This document shows positions 881-14,975 of a stretch of DNA of 30,300 nt, in pieces; position 1 is the stretch's first letter; each line of letters opens with the position of its first letter. The position numbers and the translations under genes are program-made. Source of the DNA: Candidatus Hermodarchaeota archaeon (GTDB taxonomy: Archaea > Asgardarchaeota > Hermodarchaeia > Hermodarchaeales > Hermodarchaeaceae); the NCBI GenBank assembly GCA_016840065.1, contig JAEOTB010000073.1, positions 1 to 30,300 of the forward strand. The letters run 5' to 3'. The notes beneath the pieces were generated by a model, which worked only from the letters and a program-made list of their open reading frames with translations, did not search any database and had not been told where the DNA came from.

Positions 881-1849
881 ATGGAGAAAGAGAAAAGCGT
901 CAAAGAATGGATAAAACTCCTAGAAAGCTCTCAAAATCCTCGGGTAAGGCAAAGCGCTGCTGTTGCCCTAGGAAGGCTGGGAGATAGAAGCGCTGTCAAG
1001 CCTCTGATTCATTTGCTGAAGAGAGACCAAAACCTTTCGGTTAGAGGAGCTGCTGCTCGAGCCTTAGGAGAGCTAGGAGATTCCCGCGCAGTAAATCCTC
1101 TCATAGACGCTGTGCTTCTAGGAGCGAGTGTTGAAGTTCGGGCTAATGCTGCTTGGGCTTTGGGGCGGATTGGCGACCCCATCGCTGTAAACCCCCTGAT
1201 AACGGCTCTACGAACTATTCACCTTGTTACGCCACAAACTCGTCTTGCTTTGCTGGAGACTAGAACACGGTACAGTCGTACAAGGGAACTTATCTCCCGA
1301 TCCACGCGTAGGCCAGGGAGTTACGACCTTGCTGGTGTGAGACGAAATGCTGCTCTAGCCCTTGGGAGGCTAGGAGCCCAAAGTGCCATTGAGCCCCTTA
1401 TCTATGCCATGAGAAACGATTTGTCGATGGAGGTGCGGCGAAGCGCCGCCCTTGCCTTGGGGGAGTTTCTTTCCGAGCTAGACGGACAAATAATGTCTGA
1501 GATGGAAACCCTTGTTCCAGGTACGGCTCCAAAGACTTCTGTGGAGGAAGAAACAATTGAGGTCATTACAAAACCCATACCAAAACCCACTTCTTTTTCA
1601 AGGACAAGAAAGGTAAAACTACGTTGTCCATCCTGTCAGAGAATCATTCGAAAGAGTGAGGACCTCTGCTCCAAATGTGGGAAGGGCTTGAGCCGATGCA
1701 CGGTTTGTCACAAGGTCATTGACCCCGATGATGATTACATTCAATGCCCCCATTGCATGAGTTTAGCTCACAGGGATCATCTTGAGGAATGGCTTCAAAT
1801 CAAGCCTGTCTGTCCGTATTGCCAGAATCAAATAATGATTCAAGGTTAG
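881..1849 (+). CDS. HEAT-repeat (PBS-lyase-like) protein with C-terminal zinc ribbon and RING-like finger
   Basis: Repeated VRxxAAxALGxLGDxxAVxPLI units. The C-terminus has CPSC..CSKC followed by CTVC-x12-CPHC-x4-HRDH-x3-W-x6-CPYC. Confidence 0.88.
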   Translation: MEKEKSVKEWIKLLESSQNPRVRQSAAVALGRLGDRSAVKPLIHLLKRDQNLSVRGAAARALGELGDSRAVNPLIDAVLLGASVEVRANAAWALGRIGDPIAVNPLITALRTIHLVTPQTRLALLETRTRYSRTRELISRSTRRPGSYDLAGVRRNAALALGRLGAQSAIEPLIYAMRNDLSMEVRRSAALALGEFLSELDGQIMSEMETLVPGTAPKTSVEEETIEVITKPIPKPTSFSRTRKVKLRCPSCQRIIRKSEDLCSKCGKGLSRCTVCHKVIDPDDDYIQCPHCMSLAHRDHLEEWLQIKPVCPYCQNQIMIQG

Positions 1850-1877
1850 ACTTCTGAATCACATGGTGGGATGGTTA

Positions 1878-2765
1878 ATGGAGTACGAGAGAAGCGTTAA
1901 GGATTGGGTAAAGCTCCTGAAGCGCGATGTGGATCCTCATATTCGGCGTCGTGCCGCGGAAGCATTGTCAAAGTTGGCGGAAAGTACTGAGGCAGCGAGG
2001 CATGCAGTCAAACCGTTGATTAGTGCTCTGGGATTTGATACGGATATTTCAGTGCGGGAGGCAGCTGCCCGAGCGCTTGGTGCGCTGGGTAGCCGACTTG
2101 CCGTGAACACTTTGATTGCTGCTCTGCGCACTGATGTCAGTGTGTCTGTACGAAGCGGAGCGGCTTCAGCGCTGGGGCGTATCGGGGATGCTCGCGCTAT
2201 AGATCCCCTGATTTTTGTACTGAAGCGCCACAAAGCAGAGGCAGCCCGAAGAAGCGCTGCCCTAGCCTTAGGACGTTTTGAGGAAGACAAGGCTATCAGT
2301 GCCCTCACCGGCTCCGTAAAGACGGATCCATCCATTGAGGTCAGAAGAACTGCTGCCATGGCATTACAGTGGCAGCTAGACCGGTTAGACCCTCAAAGAA
2401 GAGGCACCGTTGAACCCCTCATTCGCCAGGTATTACCAGAACCTGAGAAAGTGAAAACCCCTAAAGTGAAAGAAACGGTTAGTGAGGCACCCAGTGAAGG
2501 CAAGGCAACCATAGTTAAGCCAAAGCTAATCTGCCCGTCTTGTAGGAAGAGAATCAGGAAAGCAGCCAATGTTTGTCCAAAATGCAAGAAGCCGCTAAGC
2601 CGCTGTATGGTTTGTCATAAGATAATTGGGCCAGATGAAGCCTTTACAGCATGTTATCAGTGTGGGGAACTGGCACACTTGGAACATATGCAGCACTGGC
2701 TCACCATCAAGACCATATGTCCCCACTGCCAGCATCACCTGAGTCCTGAGCGCTATAATTTTTGA
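1878..2765 (+). CDS. HEAT-repeat protein with zinc ribbon and RING-like finger (paralog of 881..1849)
   Basis: Same HEAT units, then CPSC..CPKC and CMVC..CYQC-x4-HLEH-x3-W..CPHC. Start moved from 1863 to ATG 1878 because MEYERSVKDWVKLL aligns with MEKEKSVKEWIKLL. Confidence 0.87.
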   Translation: MEYERSVKDWVKLLKRDVDPHIRRRAAEALSKLAESTEAARHAVKPLISALGFDTDISVREAAARALGALGSRLAVNTLIAALRTDVSVSVRSGAASALGRIGDARAIDPLIFVLKRHKAEAARRSAALALGRFEEDKAISALTGSVKTDPSIEVRRTAAMALQWQLDRLDPQRRGTVEPLIRQVLPEPEKVKTPKVKETVSEAPSEGKATIVKPKLICPSCRKRIRKAANVCPKCKKPLSRCMVCHKIIGPDEAFTACYQCGELAHLEHMQHWLTIKTICPHCQHHLSPERYNF

Positions 2766-2839
2766 CAGTCCTAGTTGGAACCTCGCCTAGACATCCTTAA
2801 TAGGTGTCAACGGGAGAAGCTGGTTGGTGATTTCAAGCT

Positions 2840-3211
2840 ATGCCCTTCCTTTGGGCACGAGATGCCCCCCAATTCTATCATCCCGTGGACAGATTACCGG
2901 AGGAATCCGATGAGGAGTGGACGGAGCGCCTCTACGACTGGCAGGAATATTGCGAAGAAGACCTCCTCTTTGGTCTCTACGCAGCCGTGGGCCCAAGCCT
3001 CGGGCAGATCATCCGGTGGGCACGGGCAAACGGGTGGGCAGAGAAGGATACCCAGATTATCGTCGGAGAAGTCACACCCGCAGACCTCAAACCCTTGTTA
3101 CGCCTAGTCGAACAGGGTGAAGACTTTGTGCTACTCCCCAAATGTGAAGAGTATGAAGAAGAAGGCATCGTTCTCGTCGTCCGACCAAGACCACCTAGAA
3201 CGCAACAGTAA
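2840..3211 (+). CDS. Hypothetical acidic protein (123 aa)
   Basis: Fills the gap between co-oriented genes, has an upstream GGTGA SD-like motif and a globular-looking composition. No family recognised. Confidence 0.6.
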   Translation: MPFLWARDAPQFYHPVDRLPEESDEEWTERLYDWQEYCEEDLLFGLYAAVGPSLGQIIRWARANGWAEKDTQIIVGEVTPADLKPLLRLVEQGEDFVLLPKCEEYEEEGIVLVVRPRPPRTQQ

Positions 3212-3262
3212 CTAACCCCCTCTCGATGTGGAAAACGCTAGACTTGTGGGAGAAGAAGCATC

Positions 3263-4162
3263 TTGACGCACAATGGTCCAGATTCGATTGAACCGCTGGT
3301 TGCTGAGTCTAAGGCAGTACTCGAGCAGTACCGCAACCGTAGTCTTCCCGCTCAGGAAAGGGGTGCGCTTGCCATTCGCCTGCGGCAGTTTGCTTATCAA
3401 ATCGAAAGGCATGCTCACACGATTTATCGTCAAGGAAGAATCACGGAAGCGTTGACCCTCCTCCAGGGCATCCTTACAATCTTTCATGAGACTGGGGATA
3501 AACCTAACGAGGGCCTCGCCCTCAACAACATCGGTCTCGTCTTCAAATCTCTGGAGCAGTACGAGAAAGCCTTAGACTGCCTCAAACGAGCCCTAACCAT
3601 ACATCAGAAGGTAGGGAACCGCCGTGGTGAGGGAACCACGTTGAACAACATCGGCTTGGTCTACCATTTAATGGGGGAGTCACAGGTAGCGCTGGATTAC
3701 TTCAATCAGGCGTTGGTCATTGCCCGTGAAGAGGCGAACCTAAACGGTGAGGCGAATGCCCTCTCCAATATCGGTGCCGTGTACACAGCGTTGGAACAGT
3801 ACCAGGAAGCCCTCATGCACCTCCAGCAAGCCCTCACCATAACTCGCCAAATCGGAATCCGGTATGGTGAAGGAACCGTACTGAACAACATTGGGAAAGC
3901 GCTGCTTAAGCTGGGAAGGTTTGTGGAGGCTCTCGGAAACCTTGAACAAGCCCTAACAATCCAGCAAGAGATTGGCGACAAACCAGGTGAATGGATTACT
4001 CTCAACAACATTGGTCACGTAAAACAGGAGCAGGGGTATCTACAAGAAGCTCTGGAGTACTTCCAGCAGGCTCTAGCCATTACACGAGAGATTGATGACA
4101 AAAATGGTGAAAGACTAACCTTAGAGAACATTGAAACAATATCCAAGCAATTAGAGAAGTAG
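3263..4162 (+). CDS. Tetratricopeptide repeat protein (40-aa MalT/TPR_12-type repeats)
   Basis: Repeats of GEGxxLNNIGxVYxxLxxYxEALxYxxQALxIxREIGD. Confidence 0.9.
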   Translation: MTHNGPDSIEPLVAESKAVLEQYRNRSLPAQERGALAIRLRQFAYQIERHAHTIYRQGRITEALTLLQGILTIFHETGDKPNEGLALNNIGLVFKSLEQYEKALDCLKRALTIHQKVGNRRGEGTTLNNIGLVYHLMGESQVALDYFNQALVIAREEANLNGEANALSNIGAVYTALEQYQEALMHLQQALTITRQIGIRYGEGTVLNNIGKALLKLGRFVEALGNLEQALTIQQEIGDKPGEWITLNNIGHVKQEQGYLQEALEYFQQALAITREIDDKNGERLTLENIETISKQLEK

Positions 4163-4247
4163 ACACGTTATGGACATGGGCTATAACTATCTCTTACAGT
4201 ATACTTAAAGTCTCATTCACCCAATGTGTTTTCGCGTTGGGATGGTT

Positions 4248-5042
4248 ATGGAATCTGAGCGTAGTGTCAAAGAATGGATCAAATTGCTAAAGGAGTATCC
4301 TGACCCTCATGTGAGGAGAAAGGCTGCTGAGGCATTGGGGAAGCTAAGAGACCCAAAGGCCGTGAAACCCCTGATTAGTGCTTTAGAAAGGGATCAAGAA
4401 GGTTCAGTAAGGTGTGCTGCTGCCCAAGCATTGGGTGAACTCGGCGACAGAAAAGCTGTTAAACCGTTAATAAAGGCCCTGGGGCTAAAGAGTACGCTTT
4501 CGTCGAAAAGAAAGCGTGTTCGCGGAGTAGTCGAAATAGTAGACCTGAAAATTCAGGGAGAAATCAGTTCTGAAGTGATATCCAACGCAGCAACCGCTCT
4601 AGGAAGAATCGGTGACCCCCGCGCCATCAAACCTCTAGGTCAAACTCTGCGTCGGCACAAGGAATATGCCCGAATCCGGGCTGCTCTTGCCTTGGGAATG
4701 TTTGAAGACCAACATGCACTCAGCTTCCTTGTAGACTCTGTGGAACGCGACCCTTCGATTGATGTTCGAAGAAGCGCTGCTCAGGCCTTAAGGGGTCGGA
4801 TAGGTTGGTTAGACCCTGCGAGAAGAACCCGCATACAGCTAACAATCAGCAGCCTTCTGGGAGAACCTACTGTTATTGAAGGACCATCGCGTGAAGTATT
4901 CCCGGGAGTGGAAGTCAGCGACGGTTTTCTAGTCGTACCCTCTACTTCTTCTGAGGCTCCTGCGAGAGTGTTCTGTAGGTTTTGTGGTGAGAGGATAAGT
5001 ATAGAAGAGGAAACATGTCCAAAGTGCAAATCAACTCAATAA
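4248..5042 (+). CDS. HEAT-repeat protein with C-terminal zinc ribbon only (third paralog)
   Basis: N-terminus MESERSVKEWIKLL matches the paralogs, so the start is 4248 rather than 4224. HEAT units follow, and it ends CRFC-x10-CPKC with no RING. Confidence 0.87.
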   Translation: MESERSVKEWIKLLKEYPDPHVRRKAAEALGKLRDPKAVKPLISALERDQEGSVRCAAAQALGELGDRKAVKPLIKALGLKSTLSSKRKRVRGVVEIVDLKIQGEISSEVISNAATALGRIGDPRAIKPLGQTLRRHKEYARIRAALALGMFEDQHALSFLVDSVERDPSIDVRRSAAQALRGRIGWLDPARRTRIQLTISSLLGEPTVIEGPSREVFPGVEVSDGFLVVPSTSSEAPARVFCRFCGERISIEEETCPKCKSTQ

Positions 5043-5110
5043 TCCCTTAGAAGAGCAGGTTTATGGGAAGAATATCTACTATTTCTTCTCTCTTAGCTTG
5101 TTGGAGTTAC

Positions 5111-6232
5111 TTGGCGAAACGCAGCTCAGATTCGATATCACAACTCATCACAGAGGGCGAGGAACTACTCCGAGAATACCGTAGCCTTGAGCCAGGTAGT
5201 AGGTATCAACAGGAACCAATCGTGCGACAGTTCGCCCTTCAATTAACTGAGCGATATGTTGCGCATTATCGTAAAAATGAATTTGAAGATGTTTTAAGGA
5301 TACTACCTCTAGTGGTAGAGTTCAATAAAGCCCTTGACAACCCACCTGGTGTAGGGACAACCCTAGCCCTCATGGGTATGGTATACAGGACGCTAGAACG
5401 GCACAAGGAGTCCCTAGAATATCTTCAGCAGGCCTATGCCGTCAGCCGTGAGATTGACGACCGCCGTCTCAAAGGAACTACACTAGGTAGTCTCGGTGAA
5501 GTTCTTGTTAAGTTAGGGCGGTACAAGGAGGCCCTAGACTATCTCCAGCAGGCTCTCCCCATCACTCGTGAGGTGGGCGATAGACCAGGTGAAGGAATGG
5601 CCTTGGCCAACATCGGTAGGGTATACAAGGCATTTGGGCGTTTTCAGGAGGCCCTAGACTATCTTCAGCAGGCTCTCGTCATTAGTCGTGAGGCTGACGA
5701 TAGATCCCAGGAGGCGGGTATCGTAAACGACATCGGCGACACTTACGTTAAGCTGAAGCGTCCCCAAGAGGCGATGAAATACCTCCAACAGACTCTCACC
5801 ATTTTGCGCCAAATGGGAGACCGAAGAAGAGAGGGAATCACACTTGGCAATCTTGGAACTGTTTACAGGTTGTTTGGACGAACCTCTGAAGCCCTAAAAC
5901 ATTACAACCAGGCTCTTGCCATTAGCCGCGAGTTTAACGACCGAATATCAGAGGGTATGACTCTAAACAATATTGGTCTATTGTATAGGGTGATGGGGCA
6001 GCAACAAAAGGCCTTAGGCTATTACAAGCAAGCTCTCATCATTATCCGTGAGATTGGTGACCGCCAAGGAGAAGGAATTCTCCTTAACAACATTGGCATG
6101 GTGTGCAAGATATTGGGGCAGCGCCAGGAGGCCCTCGACTACTTCCAACAAGCCCTCGAAATTATGCGTGCGGTTGGCAATCAATATATTATAGGATTGA
6201 TCGAGAAAAACATCAAGGAGATTGCCTTGTAG
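5111..6232 (+). CDS. Tetratricopeptide repeat protein (paralog of 3263..4162)
   Basis: 40-aa TPR units. N-terminus DSISQLITEGEELLREYR..VRQFALQL aligns with DSIEPLVAESKAVLEQYR..LRQFAYQI. TTG 5111 after GGAG is preferred over 5063. Confidence 0.88.
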   Translation: MAKRSSDSISQLITEGEELLREYRSLEPGSRYQQEPIVRQFALQLTERYVAHYRKNEFEDVLRILPLVVEFNKALDNPPGVGTTLALMGMVYRTLERHKESLEYLQQAYAVSREIDDRRLKGTTLGSLGEVLVKLGRYKEALDYLQQALPITREVGDRPGEGMALANIGRVYKAFGRFQEALDYLQQALVISREADDRSQEAGIVNDIGDTYVKLKRPQEAMKYLQQTLTILRQMGDRRREGITLGNLGTVYRLFGRTSEALKHYNQALAISREFNDRISEGMTLNNIGLLYRVMGQQQKALGYYKQALIIIREIGDRQGEGILLNNIGMVCKILGQRQEALDYFQQALEIMRAVGNQYIIGLIEKNIKEIAL

Positions 6233-6320: not shown

Positions 6321-9300
6321 CTAACCTGCTCCTTCGATTCGTCTTTGTCGTCTCCGGCGTACCTGAAGCCCACCGAATATGTAGCGTATAATAACATAAC
6401 AGCCGATTATTGCGATGAAAAGATATGTGAGCATCAGTACCCATAATCCTGCTGCAGGCCAGGGATCAGGTAGGGTGGGGAAGACCCATGTGGCAAGAAA
6501 TCCTGCGATGCCGGGGAGGAAGGTTAGTGCGATGATTTTCGCTTCTATGCTTTCGACGAACCGCCCAAGCACTGAGCCACGAGCTCCTAGCTTAACGATT
6601 ACCTTGGGGAAGTCTGGTTGCTCGAGGGCGTTTTGGAATTCCTCGTAGGCTTCCCGCCATTCTGTAGGGTCCTGGAGCCGTTGTAGCCCAGTGGGTTGGG
6701 AGTCTCTCTTTTCTGGTCCTCTGCGTTTTGTTTCACTAGTCATTGGTTTTTGTTGGCGGCGGATGTTCTCACTATCTCCCCTAGCCCTTTCTTCTTTGGG
6801 CTTCTCGTGTTTAAGAAATTCTAGAATCTCTGTTACACTTTGGGAGAGCCCATGGACTTGGCGGTCCACCTTGGCGAGTCGACTTGATACGATGTGGCGT
6901 AACTCGGTGAAGAGTATTGTTTCCAGTGGGCTGAACTCCCGAGGTTTCATTTCTGGTGCATATTCAATACGATGTCCTGTTACTGATAGGATGGCTTCGG
7001 GGGAAACTGAGTAACCAGAGTCTAGCTTGAAACTCGCCCACTCAGAGTAGTGTTGTCGTTCCGTATCCCATACAAAGTCGGTGAATCGAACATCTGCCTT
7101 ATCGCCCCTGTCACTTTCAACGGTGAGTACAACCGCCTCTATCCATGGGCCATACTCGATGGGTAGCTCCTCGATGGCGAGTTTGAAGTGTATTGCGGTT
7201 TCTTTCCGGTCAGGGAGCTGGACGGTGACTTTGCCCTCTCGTTGGGTCTCCTTTGTTAGAGGTATTTCGGTGATTTCTTCTTCCCGGGGGAATTCAGCAG
7301 GGTTTAGGGGAGAAAACCAGAGGCGCAGGTGCCATGGGAGCATAAGGTAACCGAGTTGTTTCCTGAAGACAGCATAACGCAAGGGGACCTCACGGCAGGT
7401 TTTCTGGATTCTACGGATGTATTCCTTTTGATGCTCTGAGGAAAGGTAGGGGATAAGCTGAGGCATGAAGCCACCCTCCAGATGCTCCAGTTTTGTAGCC
7501 CCCCAGTATAGACAGTCAAAGACCTTATGTCCTTCTTTCCTGTAGTTCTTAACTAGGGTCCAGAGTCCAGTTCCACCTCCCAGCATTCGGTCCTGAAGTT
7601 CGGTGGGGAGAAGTGTAAGCAGGTAGAGGTCTAGGACACATCCTTCGAAATCCCAAATGGCTGCGGTTTTGTCAGATGAACCTGATATTATGTGTCGACA
7701 ATCCTTTGCCACAGCAATAGCACCAACAGCGCCCTCATGCCCATGGAGGACTCGAAGCAGTGTACCCTTCTCAAGGTCCCAAACTTTGATTGTGTTGTCG
7801 TGACCTCCTGATACGACGTACTTGCCGCAGGGTGAAACTGCCACGGAAAGAACACGGCTGCGATGACCTTTCAGGGATCGGAGTACCTCACCAGTCGCTG
7901 GGTCCCAGATAACGACTTTGTCTTCGCGGGCACCCGAGATGATGTGCTGACCGTCCTGTGTAGTAGCGACAGGTCCAACTGATTTTGTGTGGCGTGGAAG
8001 GGTTTGCACGAGCTTGCCTTCCTCAAGGTCCCATACACGGACAGTTTCATCCCAAGCCCCTGACAGCACGTGTTGCCCATCGGGTGCCATTGTGATTCCA
8101 TGCACTCGACCGGAGTGACCCTTTAGAACCTTGACTGGTGCGCCTGTTTTAGCGTCCCATACACGCACCGCATCATCCCTGCCACCACTCAGTATTAATC
8201 GAGAGTCCGGAGTGACTAGCACAGATCCAACTGCGTCAGTGTGACCTTTTAGGAGATGAACCTGTTTTCCAGATTCAATATCCCACACTCTGACTGACCT
8301 ATCGGAGGAGGCTGAAATAATATGGCAACCATCCGGGGTTATGGCAAGGTCATCGATGGCGTTTTTATGACCCTCTAGGGTGTGAACTAACTCTCCTGAA
8401 TGAAGATTCCAGACCAGAATCTTATCATCATCGGTTCCTGTAACTAGGTGTTTGCCATCAGGAGACTCACACAAAACGCTTATCCTACCTGTGTGGGGTA
8501 GGGTACGGAGCATCTCATTAGTCAGTAGGTTCCAGATGTGGACGCTACCATCAAAAGAGCAAGTGAGTAACCGCCTTCCATCAGCGGTAACTGTGGCTCC
8601 ATAGACTCCTCCTTGGTGTCCCCTGAGTAGACGGAGTTCCTCACCTGTCTGGAGGCTCCAGACCCTTGTGGTTTTATCCTCGGAGGTGGAGATGATGTTC
8701 TTCCCATCTTTAGTTAGTGTAACAGATAGGACGGGTCTTTCGTGACCCTCAAGTACAAAGACCAGTTCACCACTTCGGAAATCATAAACACGAACCCTCT
8801 TGTCCCTTGAACCTACAACGATGTGGCGGGAGTCGGGGGTAACTATTACAGATTCCTGGGATTCTGCATCTCCTTCAATCACTCGGAGTGCCTCTCCCGT
8901 AGCAAGACCCCAAACCCTAATCAGGTGGTCTTCATGGCCTACACTAACTATGTACCGGTCATCAGGTGTTATTGCCACACTTCGTACGGTGCCGTCGTGA
9001 CCTTTGCAGGTGTGGAGGAGTTTCCCAGATTGCAGCTCAAAGACGCGTACTGTTTTATCTCGAGACCCTGAGACTAGGAATTTTCCGTCATTGGAAATAA
9101 CTACAGTTGTAACCGATGCCTTGTGTTCCTTCAATGTGTGGAGGGCCTTTCCTGTTGTAAGATCAGAGACTCTGATAGTCCTGTCAAGGGAGCAGGACAC
9201 GACGAAGCGACCATCGGGTGAGGATGTAACGGCTTCCACAGCTGCGTTGTGAGCCTTTATCTGGTGAAGGAGCTGAGAGGTAGCGAACTCCCATACTAGA

Positions 9301-9416
9301 ACCTTGCCTTGAGTTGTGCCAGCAATCACGTGGTGACCGTCAGCTGTTGCTGTTGTGCAGAGTAAGGGCTCCTTCTGCTCTATCTGTTTGTCAGGAATTA
9401 TGGCAAATTCTGTCAT
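6321..9416 (-). CDS. WD40-repeat protein (14 repeats, two 7-bladed propellers) with uncharacterised C-terminal region and two terminal TM helices
   Basis: I counted 14 GH..SGSxDxTVRVWD-type repeats in the first ~590 aa. Hydrophobic segments IIALTFLPGIAGFLATWVF and AAGLWVLMLTYLFIAIIGCYVII are followed by RRRRQRR. Confidence 0.92.
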   Translation of the reverse strand: MTEFAIIPDKQIEQKEPLLCTTATADGHHVIAGTTQGKVLVWEFATSQLLHQIKAHNAAVEAVTSSPDGRFVVSCSLDRTIRVSDLTTGKALHTLKEHKASVTTVVISNDGKFLVSGSRDKTVRVFELQSGKLLHTCKGHDGTVRSVAITPDDRYIVSVGHEDHLIRVWGLATGEALRVIEGDAESQESVIVTPDSRHIVVGSRDKRVRVYDFRSGELVFVLEGHERPVLSVTLTKDGKNIISTSEDKTTRVWSLQTGEELRLLRGHQGGVYGATVTADGRRLLTCSFDGSVHIWNLLTNEMLRTLPHTGRISVLCESPDGKHLVTGTDDDKILVWNLHSGELVHTLEGHKNAIDDLAITPDGCHIISASSDRSVRVWDIESGKQVHLLKGHTDAVGSVLVTPDSRLILSGGRDDAVRVWDAKTGAPVKVLKGHSGRVHGITMAPDGQHVLSGAWDETVRVWDLEEGKLVQTLPRHTKSVGPVATTQDGQHIISGAREDKVVIWDPATGEVLRSLKGHRSRVLSVAVSPCGKYVVSGGHDNTIKVWDLEKGTLLRVLHGHEGAVGAIAVAKDCRHIISGSSDKTAAIWDFEGCVLDLYLLTLLPTELQDRMLGGGTGLWTLVKNYRKEGHKVFDCLYWGATKLEHLEGGFMPQLIPYLSSEHQKEYIRRIQKTCREVPLRYAVFRKQLGYLMLPWHLRLWFSPLNPAEFPREEEITEIPLTKETQREGKVTVQLPDRKETAIHFKLAIEELPIEYGPWIEAVVLTVESDRGDKADVRFTDFVWDTERQHYSEWASFKLDSGYSVSPEAILSVTGHRIEYAPEMKPREFSPLETILFTELRHIVSSRLAKVDRQVHGLSQSVTEILEFLKHEKPKEERARGDSENIRRQQKPMTSETKRRGPEKRDSQPTGLQRLQDPTEWREAYEEFQNALEQPDFPKVIVKLGARGSVLGRFVESIEAKIIALTFLPGIAGFLATWVFPTLPDPWPAAGLWVLMLTYLFIAIIGCYVIIRYIFGGLQVRRRRQRRIEGAG

Positions 9417-9506
9417 AGGTTGACCTCCCTAAAGCGAATGTTGGGTGATAGTTACTCAAAACCTTTTCTTCCCCAACAACAGAAAGACTAGTGATGTAAC
9501 GAGGGT

Positions 9507-10403
9507 CTAGCCTGTGAGCATATCAGGGGTTATCTTGATTTTTCGCTTTGCAGCAATCTGAATTGTGCTTTCAGGATCCAAGCTAGGTACTCCGAGATAA
9601 GGATCCCCATCCTTATGATCAACGCGTCCGTCATAATGTTTGGGCACAAAGTCAGGGTCTTTCTGGCCGGAGGGGTTTGCGCCGAAGGAGGCGGCAAAGG
9701 TGAAGAGAAAATCAATGGGATAATCCTGGCCTGCTTCGAAAGGTTTGGGGTAGTTCTTCATCCAGCCTTTGAAGAATTCGCGCATTTTTACAATGATGTG
9801 AGCTTTTCCAGGATCAGTACCTTTAATCTCGCATTCAGGCCAGCTGCCGTCACCGCTATCAAAGGTGTGACCAAGAAGTCCTCCGAACCCAATGTAACCT
9901 GAAAGGGGTTTGAGCTTCGGATCATAACTGAGATCAAACTCGAGGGCTCCATCACCAGGTTTTGCCTTGGTGAGCAGCCAAGGCTTGATGTCGGTGGTCA
10001 TGGTGAGTTTCTCGAACCACTTGCCTGGATGGAACCAGTGTAGAGTCATCTTGTCGAGGCCACAGCCAGATGGAAGTGCCTTACCAGTTAGTTCTGCATC
10101 GATAAGACTCTCATTGTATTCCAGCTCCGTGGCAAGCTTACCAGAGGCATCTAATCTGTAATCAAGATAATCTTCCATACTTTCCCCTAGTACACTACGT
10201 GCAGTATAGACACGAACAGGTTGACCAGCAAGAGGAGAGGCACCTGTTACAAAACTAAGTTCCAGCTGAAGACGACGGGGCTGACGAATTTGGTGAGTAG
10301 CCTTGTCGTAGTCTTCTTGATCCCAAGCAGCAAGACGTGGCATTTTTTTCATCTCAAAGGTTTCATCGCTTTCCCTTTGTCTAGCGGGACAAGTGTAAGA
10401 CAA
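9507..10403 (-). CDS. Hypothetical protein (~280-298 aa; real start may be ATG 10352 or 10343)
   Basis: Long ORF co-oriented with its neighbours, rich in Gly/Pro/aromatic residues and probably beta-rich. No family recognised. Confidence 0.7.
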   Translation of the reverse strand: MSYTCPARQRESDETFEMKKMPRLAAWDQEDYDKATHQIRQPRRLQLELSFVTGASPLAGQPVRVYTARSVLGESMEDYLDYRLDASGKLATELEYNESLIDAELTGKALPSGCGLDKMTLHWFHPGKWFEKLTMTTDIKPWLLTKAKPGDGALEFDLSYDPKLKPLSGYIGFGGLLGHTFDSGDGSWPECEIKGTDPGKAHIIVKMREFFKGWMKNYPKPFEAGQDYPIDFLFTFAASFGANPSGQKDPDFVPKHYDGRVDHKDGDPYLGVPSLDPESTIQIAAKRKIKITPDMLTG

Positions 10404-10530: not shown

Positions 10531-11100
10531 TTAAAGGTCGAATTGTTCGCTTCGCTCAAGGGATTTGACGACTTCAAACGCTAGTAGGGTGAAGACCTTC
10601 ACGACGTTCATACCATTCTTTGCGCTAGTTTCAAGATAGGAGAGCTGTAACTGCTCTGCAAAGGTTTCCCCCTGAGCAGCTGTCACCGCCTCTTTGAGAT
10701 CAGCCTTGTTACCCACTAACATCGTGGGTATTATTCCACAAATACTCTTCACCCTATCTAACCAGCCTCTCACATTCGCTAGGGTTTGTGGAACAGTCTT
10801 GTCAAAAACAACAACAGCACCCTTTGCTCCCACATAATACTTCTCAAGAACAGGACCAAACCTTTCCTGACCAGCAGTATCCCATAACTGCATCCTCAGC
10901 ACCTTATCCTCAACAGCCACGTTCTGGACAAAGAAGTTAACCCCTAGAGTTTGAATGTACTCTGGTGAGAAGAAGCCCTTAGTGAACCTGACCGCGATAC
11001 TGGTTTTACCTACTGCTGCATCACCGAGTACAATGACTTTGGCCCGATAATCATAGGGCACTGGAGGGTCGCGTTCCTTTGATTCAATTGATGGAGTCAT
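10531..11100 (-). CDS. Rab-like small GTPase 1
   Basis: G1 GDAAVGKTS, G2 TLGVNF, G3 WDTAGQERF, G4 NKAD, G5 ETSAK. Its start overlaps the upstream longin stop (ATGA). Confidence 0.95.
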   Translation of the reverse strand: MTPSIESKERDPPVPYDYRAKVIVLGDAAVGKTSIAVRFTKGFFSPEYIQTLGVNFFVQNVAVEDKVLRMQLWDTAGQERFGPVLEKYYVGAKGAVVVFDKTVPQTLANVRGWLDRVKSICGIIPTMLVGNKADLKEAVTAAQGETFAEQLQLSYLETSAKNGMNVVKVFTLLAFEVVKSLERSEQFDL

Positions 11101-11915
11101 AGGATTTTCATCACCAAAAGGTCGGTTAGTTCCCAGGCAATCAGCCGGTCCCTCTCAGCTCCAATAAGGGGTACTATGTGCTTGAAGAACAGACTCTGAT
11201 AAGCTTCTGCAGGTAATAGACGCTGCGTAAGGATGAACAGATCACGGAGAATTCGGCCCAGAGCTCTAAGCATGCCAGAATAATCTATACCTTCAACATC
11301 GATGTTTTCAAAGAACACGTTACCCTCGGGATGAACGGTCAGCCCTGATAAGGGGGAGCCAGAGTCGATGTGAGTTTTGAATATCTTGACGATTTCTCCC
11401 CAATTATCTTGACGCGTTTGATCGTCAAAGAACTTCTGGAGAATCGTGTTAAAGAACACTGTGAAGATGTCTAGGGTGTCTATAGCCTTTGCTGTGATTA
11501 GACTTCTTTCAGCTTGCTCCCAGTTTGACACGTACTTGCCCACGACCTTATCAAAGGTGTTGAACTGATACTCGTCTGGCTCTGATTCGGTAATAGCAGG
11601 TAGGTGGTTACTAAACATCTCGACGAATCGTTTGTTCAGCGTTAGGAGATACTCACTCCATCTTTCCACATTCACATTTGCCTCAGTGAAAAAGATGAAG
11701 AGTAAATCATTTTCTTCATCAATTTGGAAGAGAACCCAGAGGTTATCAAAACAGATGTAATTGACAAACTTGGTAGATAGATCCTTTGCTAGAAGTTGTA
11801 GTTTGACTAATTGAGTGGAGAGATGAGTGGGGTCGGTATTCATCGCTTTCCAGGTTTTACTGAAAAGGTGAACCCCACCTTGCCAGCTAGTTATCATGAA
11901 ATTGTAAAGTGCCAT
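11097..11915 (-). CDS. Longin-like domain protein with C-terminal helical domain (copy A)
   Basis: N-terminal beta-beta-alpha-beta-beta-beta-alpha pattern (LYNFMITSWQGGVHLFSKTW..DPTHLSTQL..LLFIFFTE). Colinear paralog of 14160..14975. Confidence 0.72.
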   Translation of the reverse strand: MALYNFMITSWQGGVHLFSKTWKAMNTDPTHLSTQLVKLQLLAKDLSTKFVNYICFDNLWVLFQIDEENDLLFIFFTEANVNVERWSEYLLTLNKRFVEMFSNHLPAITESEPDEYQFNTFDKVVGKYVSNWEQAERSLITAKAIDTLDIFTVFFNTILQKFFDDQTRQDNWGEIVKIFKTHIDSGSPLSGLTVHPEGNVFFENIDVEGIDYSGMLRALGRILRDLFILTQRLLPAEAYQSLFFKHIVPLIGAERDRLIAWELTDLLVMKIL

Positions 11916-12095
11916 CTTGCTTTTTGACCTCGTTTTCCCGAATCTGAATATTGTCGTACTTGTTAATAAACGTGCCCTGCCTGTTAAATTAATTTTCCCA
12001 GTAACGATTCAGCAGGAATTGCATCCTGAAGGAGGTTCTTCATTTGTGAAACGTAGATACTTCCAACTCTGAAGAATGGCAAGGGTCAACGATGG

Positions 12096-12647
12096 CTAGT
12101 AACCCTTAGATGTCTTGTCAATGTACTCTATGATCTGGGGTGCGAGAAGGGTGAAGATTTCTGTTGTGCCCGTTCCAGTCTTTGCGCTGGCCTCTAGAAA
12201 GCTGAGTCCATGGGTGGTCGCAAACTGTTGTCCAAACTCATAACTTATTGCCTCGGCGAGGTCAGCCTTATTCCCTACTAAGATGATGGGAATATCACCT
12301 GCACCCTCCTTTATCTCCTGAATCCAATGATCCAATTGAGTGTGAGAGCTAGACTTATCGTAAACCAGGACAGCCCCTTTGGCCCCAAGATAATAGCGTT
12401 TCCGCAAAGGACCGAACTGCTCCTGGCCTGCGGTGTCCCATATTTGGAGTTTTAAGACCTTGTCGCCCACCTTTATCTCGTGGATGAAAAATGTGACACC
12501 AATCGTTGAGATATACTCGGGATTGAAGAATCCCTTGCAGAAGCGTACGATTAAGCTGGTTTTTCCTACACCGGCCTCTCCTACTACGATGACTTTGGCT
12601 GCATGAGTAATGTGCCTGTCTTGCGTGGTTGGTGGGGTATCTGTCAT
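12096..12647 (-). CDS. Rab-like small GTPase 2
   Basis: GEAGVGKTS, TIGVTF, KLQIWDTAGQEQF, NKAD and EASAK motifs, with a GGTGA SD upstream. Confidence 0.95.
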   Translation of the reverse strand: MTDTPPTTQDRHITHAAKVIVVGEAGVGKTSLIVRFCKGFFNPEYISTIGVTFFIHEIKVGDKVLKLQIWDTAGQEQFGPLRKRYYLGAKGAVLVYDKSSSHTQLDHWIQEIKEGAGDIPIILVGNKADLAEAISYEFGQQFATTHGLSFLEASAKTGTGTTEIFTLLAPQIIEYIDKTSKGY

Positions 12648-12751
12648 AGTAACTCTATCACCAGGGGTTCTACTAGGTGTATGCTTCTAGCCCCGACTGG
12701 TTCTGATTTCAATATGATAACAGGGTAAAGGGGTGTTTTAAAATTTAGTTG

Positions 12752-13315
12752 TTAGTAGGGATGAGCCATTTGGTTGCTTACTTGGGATGCAAGGAGGTCA
12801 AAAATCTTCGTTGTGTGGTGGCCAGTCTTGGCACTGGCTTCTAGGAAGGTAAGCCGATGAGCTAGAGCGAATTGCTTACCCTGTTCAAAGGTGATGATTT
12901 CTTCAAGGTCAGCTTTGTTCCCGACAAGAACTATGGGAACATCACCCATATTCGTCTTGATCTCGTTTAGCCAGTATCCTAACTTCTCAAAGCTTTCTTC
13001 GTTAGTTTTATCATAGACCAAGATAGCCCCTTTCGCCCCATCGTAATACAATTGACGAAGGGAGCTGAACCTTTCTTGCCCTGCTGTGTCCCAAATCACT
13101 AAGCGTAGAACCTTATCTGTCATATTGAAGTCTTGGACGTAAAAGTTCACGCCTATTGTTAGAATATATGAAGGATTGAAGATGCCTTTCACGAATCTGG
13201 TGATGAGGCTGGTTTTTCCTACAGTAGCTTCGCCTATGACAATTACTTTTGCAGTGTGTGAGTGGGTTGGAGAGCTTTGTTGTAGATCGGTATCTGTTGT
13301 TGTATGGATTGTCAA
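12752..13315 (-). CDS. Rab-like small GTPase 3
   Basis: GEATVGKTS, TIGVNF, WDTAGQERF, NKAD and EASAK motifs. TTG 13315 gives 187 aa, exactly colinear with GTPase 4. The ORF-track start 13372 is an alternative. Confidence 0.93.
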   Translation of the reverse strand: MTIHTTTDTDLQQSSPTHSHTAKVIVIGEATVGKTSLITRFVKGIFNPSYILTIGVNFYVQDFNMTDKVLRLVIWDTAGQERFSSLRQLYYDGAKGAILVYDKTNEESFEKLGYWLNEIKTNMGDVPIVLVGNKADLEEIITFEQGKQFALAHRLTFLEASAKTGHHTTKIFDLLASQVSNQMAHPY

Positions 13316-13458
13316 AGTAGGGTCATCACTATGACTCGAATTCTCTTCTACCAATTTTGAACACCAATTCATTTCGTAGCAAGTCTATTTGTCGCCGTAG
13401 AGCGATGTTTGTTGGAACTGATATCCCTTGTCGCCGCCCTTATACTTCATTATTAATT

Positions 13459-13466
13459 TATATAAA
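13459..13466 (-). promoter_or_regulatory. Candidate archaeal TATA box (TTTATATA) upstream of GTPase 3
   Basis: AT-rich island in the intergenic gap. The minus strand reads AGAAAGGTTTTTATATAAATT, a purine-rich BRE-like element followed by TATA. Confidence 0.35.
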
Positions 13467-13599
13467 AACCTTTCTATAATATATGCAGCAGAAGAGTAGC
13501 CTTGAAGAGCGGCTTGTCCTAGGTACTTCAAGGAGACCTCTCTGAATTTTCAACGGTTTCGATGAAAGTAATACGAAAGTGTCAGAGTGAACAAGATAG

Positions 13600-14163
13600 T
13601 CAGTAGTGACGTGACAAATAGTTGCTCACCTGAAAGGCAAGTAAGTTGAAGAGCCTCACCGTTTGGTGACCAGTCTTTGCACTTGCTTCTAAGAAGGTTA
13701 GTCTGTGAGCCATGGCGAATTGCTTTCCACGTTCAAAGGATATGATTTCCTTGAGGTCAGCCTTATTCCCTACGAGAATCACTGGGATATCACCGGCGTG
13801 TTGGCTAATCTCTTTCAGCCAGTATTCTAGCCGCTGAAATGTTTCTTCACTGCTTTTATCATAGACTAGAACAGCACCCTTGGTGCCGAAGTAATAGCGC
13901 CTGCGAATGGGGCCGAATCTTTCTTGTCCCGCAGTATCCCAGATTTGTAGGCGAAGGACTCTATTTGGTAAATAGATGTCTTGCACGTAGAAATTCACTC
14001 CTATTGTCAGGATGTAGGATGGTTTGAAGATGCCCTTCACGAACCTCACGATGAGACTGGTTTTTCCCACAGTGGCTTCACCGACAACAATCACCTTTGC
14101 AGCGTGCGTATATACTGGAGGTTCCTTGGAGAGGCGGGCTGTTGTTGTGTCGGGGACCGTCAT
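13600..14163 (-). CDS. Rab-like small GTPase 4
   Basis: GEATVGKTS, TIGVNF, RLQIWDTAGQERF, NKAD and EASAK motifs. ATGA overlap with the upstream longin gene. Confidence 0.95.
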   Translation of the reverse strand: MTVPDTTTARLSKEPPVYTHAAKVIVVGEATVGKTSLIVRFVKGIFKPSYILTIGVNFYVQDIYLPNRVLRLQIWDTAGQERFGPIRRRYYFGTKGAVLVYDKSSEETFQRLEYWLKEISQHAGDIPVILVGNKADLKEIISFERGKQFAMAHRLTFLEASAKTGHQTVRLFNLLAFQVSNYLSRHY

Positions 14164-14975
14164 AGGAGCTGCACCACCAATGATTCGAATAGATTGTAGG
14201 CTAATAATCGGGATCGTTCTTGGCGGATAAGAGGGATCATATATCTGAAGAAGAGCGCCTGATGGCTTTGGGGTGTTATGATTCTTTGAACTAAGGTAAT
14301 CAGGTCCTTGAGGGTTCTACTCAGGGAGTCTAGCATCAGTGTGTAATTGACGCTTTGAAGGTCCTCAATCCCGTACTGTGCACCGCCCTGAGGGCTGATA
14401 GTGAAGCGATGTAGGGGAATGCTCCCTGAGACGTTATCTCGGAATGCCGCTTGAAGATGCCCCCAACAATCTTCTCTCATCTTTGGTGTGAGAAACTTCT
14501 GAAGAAGGACATCGAAGAAGAGGGAGAAGACTTCCAAGACATCCATTACCTTAGCTTTGTCTAGTGTGATCTCACCTTGTTCCCAACCGGAAATTAAGCT
14601 ATCAGCGAGTTCGTTGTAAGCCTGAGTGGGTAGGGATCCTTCTATGGACTCAAGGTGCGTTAGGTTCGAATGGAAAATCTGGATGAAGCGTGTGCTCAGA
14701 ATGTCAAGATATTCCTTGAAACGGGTTGCATCGCCTTTAGCGTCTGTGATGAAGACGAAGAGCAGTTTGTATTTCTCATCTACACTGAAGAAGAAACGTG
14801 AATCCTCTAGTGTTATCATATTGACATGCTGAGATGTGATGCTCAGTGCCATCATCTCAAGACTCGCAATGAGCGCCGAGAGTAAATCTGGATCCTTCCC
14901 TACTTTAACCCAAGTTCTGTTGTAGACGTGTTTGCCACTTTTCCAGGCAATTACATAGAAACCGTGAATTGCCAT
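14160..14975 (-). CDS. Longin-like domain protein with C-terminal helical domain (copy B)
   Basis: IHGFYVIAWKSGKHVYNRTW..DPDLLSALIASLEMMA..ITLEDSRFFF..LLFVFITD matches the longin/sedlin-like pattern. Confidence 0.78.
   Translation of the reverse strand: MAIHGFYVIAWKSGKHVYNRTWVKVGKDPDLLSALIASLEMMALSITSQHVNMITLEDSRFFFSVDEKYKLLFVFITDAKGDATRFKEYLDILSTRFIQIFHSNLTHLESIEGSLPTQAYNELADSLISGWEQGEITLDKAKVMDVLEVFSLFFDVLLQKFLTPKMREDCWGHLQAAFRDNVSGSIPLHRFTISPQGGAQYGIEDLQSVNYTLMLDSLSRTLKDLITLVQRIITPQSHQALFFRYMIPLIRQERSRLLAYNLFESLVVQLL

Follow-up and report, generated by a model that had tools for sequence, protein, structure and literature searches.

The DNA analysed here (the window, 30,300 nucleotides in full) comprises positions 1 to 30,300 of the forward strand of contig JAEOTB010000073.1 from Candidatus Hermodarchaeota archaeon (assembly GCA_016840065.1, genome completeness 84%). 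The uL2 protein of this genome shares 93% identity with its counterpart in Ca. Hermodarchaeota YT_063. Its minus strand carries a gene for a WD40-repeat protein of 1031 amino acids (aa), which lies downstream of a group of longin-like and Rab-like GTPase genes and contains an undescribed domain module in its C-terminal part. The gene is divided as follows; structural assignments rest partly on an AlphaFold2 (AF2) model, with the predicted local distance difference test (pLDDT) as its measure of reliability.

6321..9416, minus strand: whole gene, 1031 aa, 14 WD40 repeats and conserved membrane-anchor module (open reading frame, repeat and hydropathy analysis)
8529..9416, minus strand: predicted propeller 1, residues 1-296, repeats 1-7, repeat 1 degenerate (PF00400 and own-repeat profile)
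7650..8528, minus strand: predicted propeller 2, residues 297-589, repeats 8-14 (PF00400 and own-repeat profile)
7347..7649, minus strand: helical subdomain, residues 590-690, second half family-conserved (LGxxFxP ... QKxY ... YW) (AF2 and conservation)
6942..7346, minus strand: Ig-like beta-sandwich, residues 691-825 (AF2, pLDDT mostly 85-98)
6807..6929, minus strand: coiled-coil helix, residues 830-870, in an optional insert of the sandwich (AF2 and family alignment)
6672..6806, minus strand: charged linker, residues 871-915, probably disordered (AF2 pLDDT <50 for most)
6537..6671, minus strand: helix 918-929, last sandwich strand 938-943 and interfacial helix 948-960 (AF2; aligned range to model residue 357)
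6480..6536, minus strand: transmembrane (TM) helix 1, residues ~961-979 (hydropathy and AF2)
6387..6443, minus strand: TM helix 2, residues ~992-1010 (hydropathy and AF2)
6321..6386, minus strand: Arg-rich cytoplasmic tail and stop codon (hydropathy, family charge pattern)

A GGAGGT ribosome-binding-like site lies 5' of the ATG, and the start methionine is the same as in the orthologue of genome G002, with which the protein shares 80% identity. Mismatches to this orthologue are found mostly at third codon positions (17/7/67 in the sandwich), which shows that the gene is under purifying selection. In genome G001 the orthologue is divided between two contigs.

WD40 head, conserved base and membrane topology

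Pfam PF00400 identified 13 repeats with 387 bits against a cut-off of 27, which places the protein in the WD40 repeat family. A profile built from its own repeats recovered all 14 repeats counted by the first-pass annotation, the first being degenerate and the last ending at residue 589, and residues 1-589 consist of repeats throughout. The 14 repeats probably divide 7+7 into two propellers, which are 85-87% identical between species and as conserved as the C-terminal base. Judged by sequence similarity, the head seems most akin to generic WD40 proteins with regular repeats, 2YMU (E 1e-120) being the best match among the best 60 of 430 PDB matches. No other full WD40 protein was found in the assembly. 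Most Hermodarchaeia possess a separate single-propeller WD40 gene of ~300-360 aa that occurs family-wide (e.g. G004:C2:32935-33783), of which only a fragment at C48:12180-12260 was seen in the source genome.

Residues 590-1031 contain no Pfam family above cut-off, in agreement with the earlier statement that NACHT, kinase and TIR domains are missing, and likewise no P-loop NTPase of the type found in STAND/NLR-like WD40 sensors. Searches of this region against Pfam, NCBIfam, PADLOC and PDB sequences returned only carry-over from leucine-rich repeats (LRR), and a split-Roco (COR domain) origin was rejected for want of Pfam support. Foldseek against PDB and viral libraries gave no E-value <0.001, the Atlas shape search did not exceed a TM-score by query of 0.28, the Atlas feature search yielded no match, and the matches of a wide VIA search were swamped by the TM hairpin; since the sandwich was not folded alone, these blanks are no proof of a new fold. 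The literature, as far as papers were covered, which was incomplete, contained no description of the module. The protein is a WD40 protein carrying an undescribed domain module.

In the AF2 model of the C-terminal module (mean pLDDT 79.8) the sandwich carries the near-invariant positions W695, R737, ExDRGD 767-772, FxDF 778-781 and KxDxGY 797-802. The segment of residues ~918-960, with conserved P934, G944, K/R952 and E/D955, is 91% identical to that of G002. The heptad-like helix noted at first pass was recovered as AF2 helix 830-870, with 64% hydrophobic residues at a/d positions. Its proposed use as a tether found no backing in the family: the insert carrying it measures <=14 aa in 17/44 members, and it is the least conserved soluble part between orthologues.

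Hydropathy windows >1.5 were restricted to residues 956-1019, which bears out the predicted pair of TM helices with an Arg-rich tail. The loop between them has 12 residues and is devoid of K/R. Averaged over 70 family rows, K+R residues number 3.6 ahead of TM1, 0.5 in the loop and 5.0 behind TM2. The N-terminus has no hydrophobic stretch and therefore no signal peptide, as had been claimed, by hydropathy and with no dedicated predictor used. Given this absence, the positive-inside bias and the existence of kinase-headed family members, both ends of the protein most likely face the cytoplasm, which supports the earlier view of a cytoplasmic bulk on a TM hairpin.

Distribution and partner genes of the module

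A search of the full library with the module retrieved 45 relatives (50% clustering), and 3/3 of those with an annotated organism are Asgard archaea. Strong profile matches occur in 37/400 Asgard genomes, mostly from four other families and usually as one copy; weak matches to the TM part only (G005, G014, G089, G146) were excluded from this count. Within the source family the module is present in 3/19 genomes, each of them belonging to the source genus, and in 0/15 of the sister genus, with completeness of the compared genomes at 72-91%. Two TM helices and a basic tail form the C-terminus of all full-length relatives, and the N-terminal head varies between one propeller, two propellers, LRR and a protein kinase plus a further domain. 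The module is a previously unnamed anchor unit that recurs in Asgard archaea under a variety of binding heads. In the module tree, a quick IQ-TREE run with SH-aLRT only that leaves deep branching and direction of transfer unresolved, head types sort by clade and the 1031-aa protein groups with P0002 (L012:2354-5617). This nearest relative has a different WD40 repeat type and, after the TM hairpin, a thioredoxin-like domain (E 3e-4, under cut-off) that is compatible with a cytoplasmic location. Word-pattern scans of metagenome and genome contigs produced generic WD40 matches or nothing.

Two clades keep characteristic neighbours. A nicotinamidase / isochorismatase-fold partner adjoins the one-propeller member (e.g. 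L081:10585-11430); the subfamily occurs in 24/400 genomes of four families and lies directly downstream of the module gene in 24/24. Its N-terminal Asp is retained, as is the metal-site pattern HxRDWHD...HC, and a Lys (GVITNVK) stands at what we take to be the position of the catalytic Cys. It may therefore be a pseudoenzyme, a reading that draws on general knowledge of the family. A close GNAT subfamily was found in 8 genomes, 7 of them with the module. GNAT-like genes are situated <=1.3 kb from two-propeller Lokiarchaeia members at 8 loci (e.g. L079:3555-4235), in divergent, convergent and tandem orientation to the module gene.

The longin-Rab neighbourhood

Upstream of the WD40 gene the window contains the following features.

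9451..9471, minus strand: conserved BRE/TATA-like block GAAGAAAAGGTTTTGAGTAAC between the genes, candidate promoter of the WD40 gene itself (conservation and motif enrichment)
9507..10352, minus strand: 281-aa open reading frame (ORF281), no known family, conserved longin-Rab neighbour in Hermodarchaeia (homologue and synteny search)
10531..14975, minus strand: four Rab-like GTPases that lack a C-terminal Cys, plus two longin-like genes (profile search)

The first-pass annotation had placed the protein downstream of the Rab array. Order and co-orientation hold, since the WD40 gene follows ORF281 and the longin-Rab genes in G000, G001 and G002, but no GTPase is its immediate neighbour: ORF281 intervenes, and 1.1 kb separates the WD40 gene from the end of the nearest GTPase gene upstream. 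ORF281 occurs in 6/400 Asgard genomes, all within the source family, directly after a longin-Rab pair in G000, G002, G004, G015 and G017 and one gene apart in G001, where an extra gene is inserted between Rab and ORF281. It has no Pfam match in 25 homologues and no similarity to the module. As a real conserved Rab neighbour, ORF281 is a better candidate for a Rab partner than the WD40 protein. On one hot-spring contig it is present without a GTPase.

The sister genus keeps longin-Rab-ORF281 and has a CPBP / Rce1-like membrane protease (PF02517) in the slot of the WD40 gene; because this slot varies between genera, the stable unit is longin-Rab-ORF281. The protease loci (L113:1005-2213, L114:9003-10172, L115:1-538, L110:8931-10091) are followed by a convergent HtrA gene, and tblastn found no copy of the protease in the source genome. 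More longin-Rab pairs with overlapping stop/start codons are found in congeners (L116-L118; G003, G002), so the pair has been duplicated several times in the genus; the source genome harbours ~30 small-GTPase-like ORFs.

The surroundings of 33 other module loci, 383 kb in all, contain 6 GTPase genes (15.7 per Mb), compared with 374 in 24.4 Mb (15.3 per Mb) in five such genomes. The comparison is rough because different profiles were used and the genomes are not independent of one another by descent. Degenerate P-loop Ras-like proteins of ~265 aa adjoin the module gene at two Lokiarchaeia loci (L084:11682-12479, L090:7641-8429), which are sisters on the module tree and therefore represent one event. 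A GTPase link across the family is not supported, given this background density and the different gene in the slot of the sister genus; the Rab neighbourhood of the WD40 gene is a local arrangement limited to one genus. When residues 590-951 were co-folded with the GTPase closest to the gene, together with GDP and Mg, the result (score 0.00, mark 0.32) did not cover the propellers and counts neither way. The block GAAGAAAAGGTTTTGAGTAAC, 21 nt in a 90-bp gap 5' of the WD40 gene, is kept in three genomes while its flanks drift. A related motif lies outside long ORFs in 34/46 cases (23% expected) and often 30-59 nt before a start, which suggests that the WD40 gene can be transcribed by itself from its own promoter.

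On the other side, HEAT / zinc-finger and TPR genes at 881-6232 (plus strand) converge on the WD40 gene. Their number and order vary in G001 and G002, with LRR genes interspersed, and this part of the window is a fast-changing repeat-protein patch.

Interpretation and comparison with known systems

Computation shows the C-terminal 440 residues to be a conserved base, built from a helical subdomain, an Ig-like sandwich, an interfacial helix and a TM hairpin whose two ends lie inside. The N-terminal head can be exchanged, and in other clades the module gene has a small partner gene that stays constant. The most likely reading, somewhat more probable than not, is a modular adaptor or sensor that is tethered to the membrane at its cytoplasmic face, with a client at the inner face and a clade-specific partner. 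The two propellers would bind a protein client, the base would keep head and client at a short, fixed distance from the membrane, and the conserved polar loops and the basic interfacial helix could contact lipid or a neighbouring subunit. The complex might work with a soluble partner that differs by clade, namely the nicotinamidase-fold protein in the one-propeller clade and the GNAT protein in the two-propeller Lokiarchaeia clade. Candidate clients of the Hermodarchaeia copy, by position only, are ORF281 and the Rab-like GTPases. Several points weigh against this adaptor or sensor reading. Neither partner family was found in the source genome (84% complete), so that the partner argument is borrowed from other clades, and given the relatedness of the genomes the 24/24 adjacency amounts to few independent events across four families. 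A binding partner is established for 0 module members, "adaptor" is a broad label, and the membrane-proximal placement of the conserved loops is deduced from Ig topology.

An unlikely alternative is a one-chain defence or stress sensor-effector, in which the repeat head would recognise a protein that is foreign or damaged and the TM hairpins would disturb the membrane by oligomerising, like the two-TM effectors of bacterial immune systems, with the nicotinamidase-fold or GNAT partner as regulator. The patchy distribution (37/400 genomes, 3/19 in the source family), the swapping of WD40 and LRR heads as typical recognition domains, the fixed two-gene cassette in 24 genomes and the downstream HEAT/TPR/LRR genes that vary among three close genomes fit this idea. 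However, there is no NTPase switch, the TM helices have few conserved polar residues, the propellers are conserved like the base, and module genes are mostly single-copy in stable housekeeping contexts. PADLOC models matched 0/44 modules at E 0.01 (library of 2023), and a known prokaryotic defence system was rejected accordingly. Rather less probable still is the Rab effector of the first-pass annotation, a tether, coat or membrane platform for unlipidated GTPases; such an effector could act through the propellers or stem from a late genus-level recruitment into the longin-Rab unit. The synteny in three genomes and the degenerate Ras-like gene in two sister Lokiarchaeia loci speak for it. The lack of a C-terminal Cys in the four GTPases, as in archaeal Rab-like proteins (PMC4915359), makes the need for a membrane anchor real, for which the WD40 protein is a candidate supplier. 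In contrast, the background GTPase density, the sister genus with its protease and the module in 0/15 genomes, the optional coiled coil, the absent alpha-solenoid (AF2), the promoter-like block and the gene inserted in G001 argue against it.

We give little credence to the sandwich being a true RhoGDI / PDE-delta / UNC119 relative that docks lipid or a small GTPase, with the helical subdomain as the RhoGDI regulatory arm. It is equally doubtful that the module is a membrane-anchored archaeal member of this group docking the unlipidated Rab-like GTPases of this Hermodarchaeia genus, although such a dock would, if real, be a pre-eukaryotic solution predating prenylation. PF02115 and PF05351, the profiles used for this group, have no match in the genome at E 10 and are absent among the matches listed (25 of 50) for 44 module members, and no report of this fold in Asgard archaea was found in the incompletely covered literature, structure-based Asgard surveys included. 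Least probable of all, and very unlikely, is a surface adhesin with outward propellers like the signal-peptide-bearing WD40 proteins of Nerearchaeum. Membrane-bound WD40 proteins are reported there (10.1101/2025.07.22.663070) and Ig-like domains are frequently extracellular, but the 1031-aa protein lacks a signal peptide, its TM helices are even in number, both of its ends show a strong positive-inside bias and it has relatives with kinase heads.

The protein defines an unnamed Asgard domain module of ~400 residues by which interchangeable repeat heads are anchored at the inner membrane face. Such cytoplasm-facing membrane scaffolds are lacking in hypotheses on Asgard membrane organisation. 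The fixed partner genes, with the nicotinamidase-fold family at 24/24, are directly testable pairs, and the Rab neighbourhood described here should not be taken as a proto-coat.

Like COPI alpha/beta' and Sro7/tomosyn, the protein has 14 repeats, presumably two 7-blade propellers, in the cytoplasm. COPI and Sro7/tomosyn proteins are soluble, and an alpha-solenoid follows the propellers of COPI; in the present family LRR can take the place of the head. Kinship to COPI or Sro7, with which the first pass had compared the protein, was not supported, as the best PDB match is the generic bacterial-type 2YMU and neither COPI, Sro7 nor any coat subunit appears among the best 60 of 430 matches, in which WD40 scores mostly mirror repeat regularity. 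A protocoatomer (COPI/COPII/clathrin/HOPS type) was rejected because AF2 shows a short helical subdomain, beta-sandwich and TM hairpin after the propellers and no alpha-solenoid, and Sro7/tomosyn/Lgl because it requires a soluble protein without TM helices, two of which are present here and in all full-length relatives. Sec12, the guanine nucleotide exchange factor (GEF) for Sar1, likewise combines an N-terminal cytoplasmic propeller, a C-terminal membrane anchor and a nearby small GTPase, but here the propellers number two, an Ig-like module intervenes and a hairpin replaces the one TM. A Sec12-like GEF, defined by a single propeller, a single TM and exchange activity on a Sar1/Arf GTPase, was rejected on architecture (14 repeats, extra module, two TMs). 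A published search for Sec12 returned Asgard propellers that were not accepted as Sec12 proteins (PMC11914678), and the 1031-aa protein lay outside that study. With RhoGDI / PDE-delta / UNC119 domains the module shares ~10% identity and no profile match, and it differs from them by a long insert before the last strand and an integral membrane anchor. The Nerearchaeum marumarumayae surface proteins are, as here, Asgard, WD40 and membrane-bound, with signal sequences and extracellular fibronectin stalks (10.1101/2025.07.22.663070), whereas our protein most likely faces inward and has neither. A STAND/NLR-like sensor was rejected because the P-loop NTPase domain is absent. With regular prokaryotic WD40 proteins such as 2YMU (577 aa) and the PkwA propeller 5YZV the protein shares the regular 42-residue repeat, and it carries the unnamed module and a TM hairpin in place of a STAND NTPase, kinase or TIR domain.
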